Source: Escherichia coli (GTDB lineage: Bacteria; Pseudomonadota; Gammaproteobacteria; Enterobacterales; Enterobacteriaceae). Taken from it: DNA of 64,000 nucleotides. Of the stretch, positions 22,833 through 32,186 are shown piece after piece. Position 1 is the first letter of the stretch. Every line of letters begins with the position of its first letter. Location of the stretch: the NCBI RefSeq assembly GCF_030013595.1, contig NZ_CP122768.1, one strand, 5' to 3'. A model generated the notes under the pieces. It saw only the letters and a list, made by a program, of their open reading frames with translations. It was not told the DNA's origin and searched no databases. A program made the translations under genes and the position numbers.

Positions 22833-22852
22833 ATCTTCATTTTTATGAAGAT
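22833..22852. promoter_or_regulatory. perfect inverted repeat ATCTTCAT-N4-ATGAAGAT about 30 bp upstream of yhfZ (candidate operator)
   Basis: 8-bp perfect arms read directly from the sequence; followed by TAAATATTCA (22855..22864). Confidence 0.35.
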
Positions 22853-22881
22853 ATAAATATTCACTTTATTGAAAATTTACT

Positions 22882-24196: not shown

Positions 24197-24220
24197 AAAT
24201 ATTCAAAAAAATGAATATTT
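24197..24220. promoter_or_regulatory. perfect inverted repeat AAATATTCA-N6-TGAATATTT 30 bp upstream of yhfX (candidate operator)
   Basis: 9-bp perfect arms; a third ATTCA half-site follows at 24222..24226. Confidence 0.4.
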
Positions 24221-29206: not shown

Positions 29207-30292
29207 ATGAAGACGTTTCCTCTGCAAAGCCTGACGCTTATTGAGGCGCAGCAAAAGCAGTTTGCGCTGGTGGACAGCATTTGTCGTCATTTTCCCGGGA
29301 GCGAGTTTCTTGCTGGCGGTGATTTAGGCTTAACGCCGGGGCTAAACCAGCCGCGCATTACCCAGCGTGTGGAACAGGTGCTGGCTGATGCATTTCACGC
29401 ACAGGCCGCGGCGCTGGTGCAGGGCGCGGGTACTGGCGCGATTCGTGCGGCGTTGGCGGCTTTGCTCAAACCGGGGCAGCGTCTTCTGGTGCATGACGCG
29501 CCTGTTTACCCGACGACTCAGGTCATTATTGAGCAGATGGGGCTGACGCTTATCACTGCTGATTTCAATGACCTGTTGGCACTGAAGCAGGTTGTCGACG
29601 AGCAACAACCAGATGCCGCGCTGGTGCAGCATACGCGCCAGCAGCCGCAGGACGGGTACATTCTGGCAGATGTGCTGGCAACGTTGCGCTCGGCTGGCGT
29701 TCCTGCATTAACCGATGACAACTATGCGGTGATGAAAGTGGCGCGAATTGGCTGCGAATGCGGGGCAAATGTCTCGACTTTTTCCTGCTTCAAGCTGTTT
29801 GGGCCGGAGGGTGTTGGCGCGGTGGTAGGTGATGCCGATGTTATTAGTCGGATTCGCGCCACGCTCTATTCCGGCGGCAGCCAGATTCAGGGCGCTCAGG
29901 CGCTGGAAGTCTTGCGTGGGCTGGTGTTTGCGCCAGTGATGCACGCGGTGCAGGCGGGGGTATCTGAACGGTTGCTGGCTTTGCTTAACGGCGGCGCGGT
30001 GGCGGAAGTGAAAAGCGCCGTCATTGCCAATGCACAGTCGAAGGTATTGATTGTGGAGTTTCATCAGCCGATTGCCGTCAGAGTGCTGGAAGAGGCGCAG
30101 AAACTCGGTGCCTTGCCTTACCCGGTTGGTGCAGAGTCGAAATATGAAATCCCGCCGCTCTTTTATCGACTTTCCGGAACGTTTCGCCAGGCGAATCCGC
30201 AGTTAGAACATTGCGCGATTCGCATTAACCCAAATCGCAGCGGTGAAGAGACGGTGCTGCGGATTTTGCGTGAGAGTATTGCCAGTATTTAA
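29207..30292 (+). CDS. yhfS: YhfS, putative fold-type I PLP-dependent enzyme
   Basis: 361 aa; candidate PLP-lysine region STFSCFKLFG. Confidence 0.85.
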   Translation: MKTFPLQSLTLIEAQQKQFALVDSICRHFPGSEFLAGGDLGLTPGLNQPRITQRVEQVLADAFHAQAAALVQGAGTGAIRAALAALLKPGQRLLVHDAPVYPTTQVIIEQMGLTLITADFNDLLALKQVVDEQQPDAALVQHTRQQPQDGYILADVLATLRSAGVPALTDDNYAVMKVARIGCECGANVSTFSCFKLFGPEGVGAVVGDADVISRIRATLYSGGSQIQGAQALEVLRGLVFAPVMHAVQAGVSERLLALLNGGAVAEVKSAVIANAQSKVLIVEFHQPIAVRVLEEAQKLGALPYPVGAESKYEIPPLFYRLSGTFRQANPQLEHCAIRINPNRSGEETVLRILRESIASI

Positions 30293-30333
30293 TCTTGTGC
30301 ATGATGTTTTCGAAAAGAATGCAGAAATAAATA

Positions 30334-30357
30334 CGCCCTCGGGTAACCCCGAGGGCG
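30334..30357. terminator. hairpin between yhfS and yhfL (likely yhfL terminator, bidirectional)
   Basis: 10-bp perfect stem cgccctcggg/cccgagggcg with 4-nt loop; T-rich on the minus-strand downstream side. Confidence 0.65.
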
Positions 30358-30398
30358 TCAGGCAATTAAACCGGTGTTAGCCGATTTCTGTCAGAGAC

Positions 30399-30566
30399 TT
30401 ACTGTGCAGTAGGACCGCAACCGCCAATGATTTTAGAAATAGAAATTGCCGGGTGCAGCAGGTAGTCGTAAGAGCAGTTCTTATCACGGTTTTCAATATG
30501 ACCAGTACATGCAGTTAACGTAGCCAGTACTGCGCCTACCAGTGCAACTTTAATAAATTTGTTCAT
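30399..30566 (-). CDS. yhfL: small lipoprotein YhfL, 55 aa (below ORF-track threshold)
   Basis: Hand translation MNKFIKVALVGAVLATLTACTGHIENRDKNCSYDYLLHPAISISKIIGGCGPTAQ*; lipobox LTAC. Confidence 0.85.
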   Translation of the reverse strand: MNKFIKVALVGAVLATLTACTGHIENRDKNCSYDYLLHPAISISKIIGGCGPTAQ

Positions 30567-30812
30567 TTACATTCCCTATGTATTATATATTAATTAATAT
30601 TCATTGATTATATGAATATAAGCAGACTGCTCATTAAGAACGATACAGGAATATTTAATTAGCGTCAGTGAGTGAATGGCTTAATTTTGTAAGTCGCTGT
30701 AACGGTGAATATAACCCATTAGCAGATAATATTTATTAAGGGGTTATGTTTTATTTGCTGAATATATAAAAAGAGTCATTAAGAAGGCCAGAATTCTCTG
30801 GCCCGGGTTACA

Positions 30813-32186
30813 TTAATGGTTGGAGAACCAGTTCAGTTTATCGCGCAGGCCAACAACACGACCAATAATAATTAGCGATGGACTGTTCATTTGCTGCGCC
30901 AGTTCGCCCAGCTGTGTGAGCGTACCGTCAATCACGCGCTGCGTGACTGCTGTTCCGTTTTCGACAATTGCCACCGGCATTTCGCCAGGCATACCGTGTT
31001 CAATCAGCTTTTGCTGAATAGTCGCAGCCTGATTCAGCCCCATATAGAACACCAGCGTTTGTTTTTCTGCCGCCAGGTTTTCCCAGTCCAGCTCGCCACC
31101 AGTTTTTAAGTGTCCGGTAATTAAGCGCACGCTCTGGGCATAATCGCGATGCGTGAGCGGAATACCCGAATAGGCAGAGCAACCAGAAGCTGCGGTAATA
31201 CCCGGAACCACCGAGAACGGAATACCCGCGTTGCACAGTGTTTCCAGCTCTTCTCCGCCACGCCCGAAAATAAACGGATCGCCGCCTTTCAGACGCACCA
31301 CGCGTTTACCTTTTTGCGCTTCCCGCAGCAAGATCTGGTTAATCTCTTCCTGCGGTACGCAGTGGTATCCCGCGCGTTTGCCGACGAAAACGCGATCAGC
31401 ATCGCGGCGTACCAGATTCATAATATCGTCAGAAACCAGACGGTCGTAGACCACCACATCAGCCTGCTGAATTTGTTGCAGACCTTTCAGTGTCAGCAGT
31501 CCGGCATCGCCCGGACCTGCACCAACCAGCACCACTTCACCGCGATGGTCGAGCGGTTCGTTGATTAACTGTTCGGTGGTTTCAGTAATGGCTTTCTGAT
31601 CGTTGTTGGCCAGCGACTGCGCCAGGCGGTCGTTAACGAACAATTTCTCCCAGAAACGGCGACGCTCACCCATCGTGGCGAACTGTTGTTTCACTCGCCC
31701 GCGTAATTGCCCGGCGTATTTCGCTACCTGGCCCAGATGTAACGGCAGCTGTGATTCGAGTTTTTCGCGCAACAGGCGCGCCAGAACCGGAGAGGTGCCG
31801 CCAGAGGATACCGCGACCATGAGCGGTGAGCGGTCAATAATCGACGGCATAATAAAGCTGGCGGCTTTCGGCGCATCGACCACGTTACAGAAGATGCGAC
31901 GAGCTTCAGCGGCTTCACTGACGCGCTGGTTAAGCGCGTCATCATCCGTCGCAGCAATTGCCAGCCAGCAGGTGTCGAGAAGGCTTTCATCAAATGGCCC
32001 TTCGACGAGGGTTAACATGCCTGCATCTGCCCATGCGGTGAACTGTGGAATAAACGCTAATGCATTCACCGTTAAGCGAGCGCCTGCGTCTAACAGCAAC
32101 CTTGCTTTGCGTTCCGCGACATCACCACCGCCGACAATCAGACAGTCGCGATCGCGTAATTGACAAAATATAGGCAAATGATCCAC
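30813..32186 (-). CDS. cysG: siroheme synthase (multifunctional)
   Basis: 457 aa; N-terminal NAD-binding GGGDVA region and C-terminal methyltransferase domain. Confidence 0.95.

Follow-up and report, generated by a model that had tools for sequence, protein, structure and literature searches.

A conserved palindrome upstream of yhfL in Escherichia coli: a possible promoter-overlapping operator outside the set of putative yhf operators

Introduction

Repressor operators that lie over the −10/+1 region of a promoter, such as the LexA boxes and lac O1, offer a functional parallel for a palindrome found upstream of yhfL in Escherichia coli. The yhfL site has in common with them a two-fold symmetry, conserved arms around a variable center, and −10-like hexamers near a start codon; unlike theirs, its overlap with an active −10 is presumed. 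By this analogy the palindrome would work like, and may be, a promoter-overlapping operator. All positions given here refer to the 64-kb window, that is, the whole stretch of E. coli DNA that was analyzed.

In sequence, the likeness is to the putative YhfZ sites of the yhf cluster: the 7-bp inverted half-sites are identical, the spacer is A+T-rich, and the chromosomal neighborhood is the same. The differences are those of spacing (N9 at yhfL, N6 at the yhf operators), of arrangement (single as opposed to tandem), of distribution (Escherichia only, as opposed to seven genera) and of position, the yhfL site preceding a gene that lies outside the operon.

The ARG boxes recognized by ArgR (TGAAT-N4-ATTCA, in pairs 3 bp apart) share the pentamers TGAAT and ATTCA with the yhfL site, whose arms are however inverted relative to them (ATTCA...TGAAT), with a junction of 9 bp where 7 are needed and with no second box. 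An ARG-like box, TTAAT-TAAT-ATTCA, is present once, at 30588-30605, and the neighboring positions do not match; an ArgR operator, which needs two 18-bp ARG boxes 3 bp apart, was therefore rejected. The NarL heptamer, the TorR and RcsAB boxes, ArcA, IHF, Fur and PmrA sites and the MerR-type operators with a 19-bp spacer were compared by eye, and these comparisons should be read as leads; in every case the orientation, the spacing or a key base does not agree.

The Palindrome and Its Surroundings

Open reading frames and matches to annotated genomes place dam, rpe, gph, trpS, yhfZ, yhfY, yhfX, yhfW, php, yhfU, yhfT and yhfS in this order on the plus strand of the window, followed on the minus strand by yhfL, cysG (30813-32186), nirC, nirD and nirB. 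As cysG ends at 30813 and yhfL occupies 30399-30566, the spacer between them is 246 bp long, and its A+T content is 69%. The elements of yhfL and of this spacer that are discussed below are as follows.

30399-30566, minus strand: yhfL coding sequence, encoding a 55-aa DUF4223 lipoprotein
30572-30577, minus strand: Shine-Dalgarno sequence AGGGAA inside the highly conserved block TACATAGGGAATGTAAATG (sequence and alignment)
30597-30619, no strand: 23-bp palindrome ATATTCAT-tgattat-ATGAATAT, at −53 to −31 from the yhfL ATG (sequence)
30597-30603, minus strand: downstream arm, TGAATAT in the yhfL sense, Escherichia-specific
30607-30612, minus strand: TATAAT, a perfect −10 hexamer at the center of the palindrome (sequence)
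30613-30619, minus strand: upstream arm, ATATTCA in the yhfL sense, which with T30620 forms a −10-like TATATT(C) box
30640-30668, minus strand: candidate distal sigma70 promoter, CTGACG (30668-30663)-17 bp-TATCGT (30645-30640) (conservation and position weight matrix)
30786-30803, minus strand: hairpin GGCCAGA-GAAT-TCTGGCC just past the cysG stop codon (sequence; stem conserved in the alignment)

The maximal perfect inverted repeat consists of ATATTCAT (30597-30604) and ATGAATAT (30612-30619), 8 + 8 bp with a gap of 7 nt, and can equivalently be described as 7-bp arms, ATATTCA and TGAATAT, with 9 nt between them. An earlier note on this DNA had reported it on the plus strand as AATATTCA (30596-30603), ttgattata (30604-30612) and TGAATATA (30613-30620). 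Both the letters and the coordinates are correct, and the arms of 8 bp pair as described except at their outermost bases, A30596 and A30620, which are not complementary. The placement at 30-50 bp upstream of the yhfL start, within an AT-rich spacer of 246 bp, likewise agrees with the measured distance of 31-53 bp. Read in the sense of yhfL, the whole region is CTGACG-17 bp-TATCGT-19 bp-T ATATTCA TATAAT CAA TGAATAT-30 bp-ATG.

The hairpin past the cysG stop codon is likely the terminator of nirBDC-cysG, which would part the promoter region of yhfL from cysG. The cysG-proximal half of the spacer (30700-30812) exists in E. coli as two deeply diverged haplotypes with indels, the identity falling to a minimum of about 92% over 520 bp; the YhfL protein is nonetheless identical in all eight sampled E. 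coli. At the yhfL start, the minus strand carries a start-stop pair, ATG-TAA-ATG (30561-30572), within the conserved block TACATAGGGAATGTAAATG; sister Escherichia species have ATG-AAA-ATG instead, which would lengthen the protein by two residues were translation to begin at the first ATG.

On the far side of the gene, yhfS and yhfL converge on a common hairpin (30333-30358) within a junction region at 30293-30398. The frlABCDR operon, which sits between yhfL and yhfS in K-12, is absent from the window. The frl-less junction is also found in E. whittamii, E. albertii, other Escherichia species and Citrobacter amalonaticus, and for this reason frl looks like an insertion carried by only some E. 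coli (K-12, strain E69). The mutations between yhfL and frlA described in a 2026 preprint fall on the opposite side of yhfL from the palindrome, and a text search of the literature for b3369 returned no relevant match.

Conservation within and beyond Escherichia

The palindrome is identical in K-12 (JM109 and MG1655), the comparison that the earlier note had proposed, and invariant in eight E. coli that span the range of identity of the spacer (down to 92%, with two diverged haplotypes). The same note had named absence from other strains as an outcome that would count against the motif; a 33-bp query centered on the palindrome matched 5,412 of the 5,426 complete E. coli genomes, and the identity was at least 99% in 5,080 of these. 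The inverted repeat is real, it is fixed in E. coli, and it is ordinary in kind. The E. coli variants inspected comprise a change of the central TATAAT to TACAAT in one strain and an IS1 element within the downstream arm in strain NR329. In Escherichia sp. MOD1-EC7003 all similarity is lost about 20 bp before the yhfL ATG and, taken with the IS1 of NR329, the A+T-rich yhfL promoter appears to be a target for insertions.

Among its sister lineages, both 7-bp arms are unchanged in strain E69, E. whittamii, strain E1V33 and strain SCPM-O-B-8794, and the downstream arm of E. albertii reads TGGATAT. The center varies (CACAAT, CATAAT, CATTAT, ATAATT), and the sequence just downstream of the palindrome is heavily substituted. 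Counted over six Escherichia lineages, 1 of 14 columns is variable in the arms, as compared with 5 of 9 in the center and 16 of 46 in the remaining leader (one-sided Fisher p = 0.04), a contrast that appears modest given that the six lineages are related. Conserved arms around a drifting center form the pattern of half-sites that flank a free spacer.

Outside Escherichia, the orthologous regions of C. amalonaticus, C. sedlakii and Intestinirhabdus could be aligned, and the downstream arm is absent from all three. The upstream arm is largely retained: two loci of the C. amalonaticus group have TATATTC[AG], while Intestinirhabdus has TATATGC and strain ku-bf3 AAGATTC.

Chance Symmetry in an A+T-Rich Spacer

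Perfect inverted repeats with arms of 8 bp or more and a gap of 0-12 are present in 12% of dinucleotide shuffles of the spacer, and the 64-kb window holds 33 distinct repeats of this length (gap up to 12), so that the palindrome alone is not significant. The spacer also contains four copies of the 7-mer ATATTCA and three of TGAATATA. An over-representation of ATATTCA was considered and rejected, some 7-mer reaching four copies in 14% of the shuffles; the upstream copies of ATATTCA in the spacer are not conserved in the sister species.

It is possible, if doubtful, that nothing more than such fortuitous symmetry is at work, the downstream arm happening to mirror a −10-like box in A+T-rich promoter DNA that serves no dedicated regulator. 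The conservation within Escherichia would then reflect the constraints on a promoter and an initially transcribed region together with short divergence times. The frequencies of inverted repeats and of repeated 7-mers in shuffled sequence agree with this, as does the absence of the right arm outside Escherichia. In E. coli, moreover, invariance extends beyond the arms to nearly the whole stretch from −75 to −1, the 75 bp adjoining yhfL being almost invariant. Chance does less well with the arms themselves, which vary less than center and flanks among the Escherichia species. Both 7-bp arms equal those of the site upstream of yhfX (see below) in only 0.04% of the spacer shuffles and 0.1% of windows shuffled in 250-bp blocks, and it is unlikely that the yhfL and yhfX sites share their arms by chance. 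Where the earlier note had wavered between a degenerate copy and chance, the second of these may suffice for the palindrome as such, which is common (12%), but is not a full answer for arms that are fixed in E. coli and less variable within Escherichia.

Promoter Elements and a Possible Operator

The upstream arm overlaps what seems to be an old −10-like box, TATATTC. Of 77 distinct yhfL upstream regions, drawn from many genera, 41 have a box of the form T[AT]TATTC on the sense strand between −70 and −25, as opposed to a mean of 17 and a maximum of 29 in shuffles and to 14 on the antisense strand. These loci are related by descent and do not count as independent, but the box turns up even in yhfL upstream regions that otherwise defy alignment. 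On the yhfL strand of the window, two −10 hexamers with A2 and T6 can be read, TATAAT (30612-30607) and TATATT (30620-30615), and A2 and T6 of the central hexamer are kept in all Escherichia variants. The central TATAAT is without a good −35 at 16-18 bp, its best partners being ATGAGC-16 and TTAATG-19, and a consensus promoter scan of 30280-30900 found no promoter.

Shimada et al. (2014; PMC3946193) list a constitutive RpoD (sigma70) promoter, TTAACG-19-TATAAT, in the cysG-yhfL spacer, and flag it as H-NS-bound. A SELEX experiment with the RpoS holoenzyme (PMC5493296) gave a peak at K-12 v2 position 3497370, which maps to about 30666 in the window, at −100 from the yhfL ATG. The RpoD and RpoS holoenzyme peaks both fall in the spacer, at a resolution of about 100 bp. 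RNA polymerase holoenzyme binds the cysG-yhfL spacer in vitro according to the published SELEX data.

The candidate distal promoter, CTGACG-17-TATCGT, lies at −102/−79, 33 bp further upstream than the central TATAAT. Its hexamers and their exact spacing are kept in Escherichia, Citrobacter and Intestinirhabdus while the sequence between them varies, and it is the top match of a simple position weight matrix scan in 8 of 9 species. On these grounds it appears to be the best phylogenetically supported candidate for a yhfL promoter, and it is likely the ancestral one, distinct from that listed by Shimada et al. (2014). A comparable element, TTGACG-17-CATAAC, stands about equally far from the yhfL ATG in Franconibacter. 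Counted from the predicted start of the distal promoter, near 30633, the palindrome would fall at about +15 to +37. A mapped transcription start site for yhfL could not be located in the accessible supplements of Cappable-seq, Kim 2012, Conway 2014, SMRT-Cappable-seq and Mendoza-Vargas 2009; we therefore infer the position of the palindrome relative to +1 and the choice among promoters, and likewise which −10 is used and whether any protein besides RNA polymerase is bound.

We suggest, with confidence that is about evenly balanced, that the palindrome is core-promoter or early-leader DNA of yhfL and likely also an operator for a dimeric repressor. Most likely the segment carries −10-type promoter elements for yhfL: the upstream arm would lie over the old TATATTC box and the center would provide TATAAT, to which the Escherichia-specific downstream arm adds the two-fold symmetry. 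The palindrome is probably also the binding site of an Escherichia-specific dimeric repressor, since the intervening 9 bp drift between arms that stay constant. Such a putative repressor would cover the −10/start region and block initiation; alternatively, if the distal CTGACG-17-TATCGT were used, it could form a roadblock near +15 to +37. Alone, the palindrome matters little, being one more promoter-region palindrome before an uncharacterized gene for a 55-aa lipoprotein. If an operator role is borne out, the palindrome would be a case of an operator confined to one lineage that was added to an older −10-like box.

Global Regulators and RNA Structure

In place of a specific dimeric repressor, the palindrome could serve a global regulator that binds A+T-rich DNA, namely Nac (ATA-N9-TAT) or H-NS; we consider this unlikely. 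On induction of Nac, yhfL was the most repressed gene (0.008-fold; 128-fold), with a ChIP-seq peak nearby (PMC5217608), and a sequence of the form ATA-N9-TAT is found inside the palindrome (30597-30611). Such a sequence is however expected by chance in DNA this rich in A+T, and the ChIP peak (K-12 v2 position 3497156) maps about 270 bp from the palindrome, within the 3′ end of cysG. For H-NS, the flagging of the spacer as H-NS-bound by Shimada et al. (2014) is in agreement, but its binding needs no palindrome.

Somewhat more doubtful still is an RNA hairpin in the 5′ leader of yhfL, whose arms, transcribed from the distal promoter, would pair and affect the stability or translation of the mRNA. 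The distal promoter is indeed the best conserved candidate, the loop is variable, and the sole substitution in an arm (A to G in E. albertii) turns a U-A pair into a U-G wobble. Against this, no pair is changed on both sides, so that there are no compensatory changes, and an eighth pair is broken in three lineages. The stem consists of 7-8 almost purely A-U pairs and leaves the Shine-Dalgarno sequence and start codon untouched, and the minimum free energy of the leader (−9.8 kcal/mol, z = −0.27) is no better than that of shuffled sequence. A structured RNA leader thus fails the tests of both stability and covariation (z = −0.27; 0 pairs), and a search of the leader against Rfam at a permissive E-value returned noise only and no match.

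The Putative Operators of the yhf Cluster

A search of the window that allowed up to three mismatches to ATATTCA-N6-TGAATAT gave three strong matches, all within the yhf cluster.

22833-22852, no strand: ATCTTCA-TTTTTA-TGAAGAT, distal tandem site before yhfZ (motif search)
22857-22876, no strand: ATATTCA-CTTTAT-TGAAAAT, proximal tandem site before yhfZ (motif search)
24199-24218, no strand: ATATTCA-AAAAAA-TGAATAT, operator-like N6 site upstream of yhfX (motif search)

The cluster was compared in seven genera, represented by E. whittamii, C. amalonaticus, Buttiauxella, Obesumbacterium, Chimaeribacter, Trabulsiella and Superficieibacter. In all seven, tandem sites are found at −49 and −25 of yhfZ, 24 bp apart and ending 6 bp ahead of the start codon of yhfZ; in C. 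amalonaticus the distal site has one arm mismatch (TGAGGAT) and is still N6 in the alignment. The site upstream of yhfX occurs in Escherichia, Citrobacter and Trabulsiella and is invariant between E. whittamii, C. amalonaticus and Trabulsiella. The spacer is 6 bp in each of the 17 matched yhf sites of the seven genera, and none of them departs from this length. From these comparisons, WTMTTCA-N6-TGAAKAT is a well-defined putative operator of the yhf cluster. The presence of tandem sites before yhfZ in seven genera, with a third site before yhfX, suggests autoregulation by YhfZ (HTH_41 + YhfZ_C). The operator, placed in tandem before yhfZ in seven genera and a third time before yhfX in three, provides a testable handle on an unstudied regulator and its pathway, and its definition is a more useful by-product of this work than the yhfL palindrome itself.

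The earlier note had described the arms of the yhfL repeat as matching the half-sites of the yhfX operator but with a 9-bp spacer, and both parts of this description are borne out by the sequence, the spacer at yhfX being 6 bp. The arms ATATTCA and TGAATAT fit the half-site consensus WTMTTCA/TGAAKAT perfectly, whereas the spacing does not fit: the 9 bp depart from the exact 6 bp of the yhf operators, and the half-site centers are 16 bp apart at yhfL as compared with 13 bp at the yhf sites. When the window was searched with N9 spacing, the yhfL site was the only good match, and neither of its arms has an N6 partner in the sequence. The site is also not conserved wherever the yhf cluster and YhfZ occur: C. 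amalonaticus retains YhfZ, the yhf sites (that of yhfX unchanged) and the adjacency of yhfS and yhfL, and its yhfL right arm is absent. On account of the N9 spacing, the missing N6 partner and the loss of the right arm in C. amalonaticus, the yhfL palindrome appears not to be a member of the yhf operator set, and its resemblance to the yhfX site should not serve to assign yhfL to the yhf regulon. The further proposal of the earlier note, a degenerate copy of the yhfX operator that is served by the same regulator, is not supported by this evidence.

Three extra base pairs shift the half-sites by about 10 Å and rotate them by about 100 degrees, which rigid dimers rarely tolerate. Least probable of all the explanations is the binding of the yhfL site in an alternative 9-bp spacing by the regulator of the cluster, presumably YhfZ (HTH_41/GntR-like): both arms are exact consensus half-sites, one of them extending to 8 of the 9 bases of the yhfX site, their co-occurrence by chance is about 0.1%, and yhfL is a neighbor of the cluster, which it adjoins in both Escherichia and C. 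amalonaticus and in Trabulsiella faces through the divergent yhfZ, but the invariable N6 spacing elsewhere and the situation in C. amalonaticus argue against it. If it were true, a second half-site gained in the Escherichia lineage would couple YhfL to the uncharacterized yhfZYXW-php-yhfUTS pathway, and an HTH_41/GntR-like regulator would tolerate two half-site spacings.

The position of the cluster itself is variable. In Trabulsiella odontotermitis, yhfL is divergent from yhfZ over a common intergenic region of 330 bp, so that the cluster lies on the other side of yhfL as compared with E. coli, and in Obesumbacterium and Chimaeribacter it is found at unrelated loci. Given these placements, the yhf cluster seems to behave as a mobile island that has landed repeatedly beside yhfL.

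Other Palindromes before yhfL

A different palindrome, AAATGGA-N3-7-TCCATTT, is found before yhfL in Enterobacter, the Citrobacter freundii/koseri group, Lelliottia, Superficieibacter and relatives (exact in 21 loci), at about −30 to −68 from the yhfL ATG. Like the palindrome of E. coli, this inverted repeat is conserved and lies about as far from the yhfL start, in the same cysG-yhfL spacer; the two are nonetheless unrelated in sequence and in the orientation of their arms, and the protein involved is thus presumably a different one. The existence of this second conserved palindrome in the Enterobacter/Citrobacter freundii group suggests that palindromic control elements before yhfL are common and turn over between lineages. 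The core of the AAATGGA palindrome, TGGA...TCCA, is reminiscent of IclR-type boxes.
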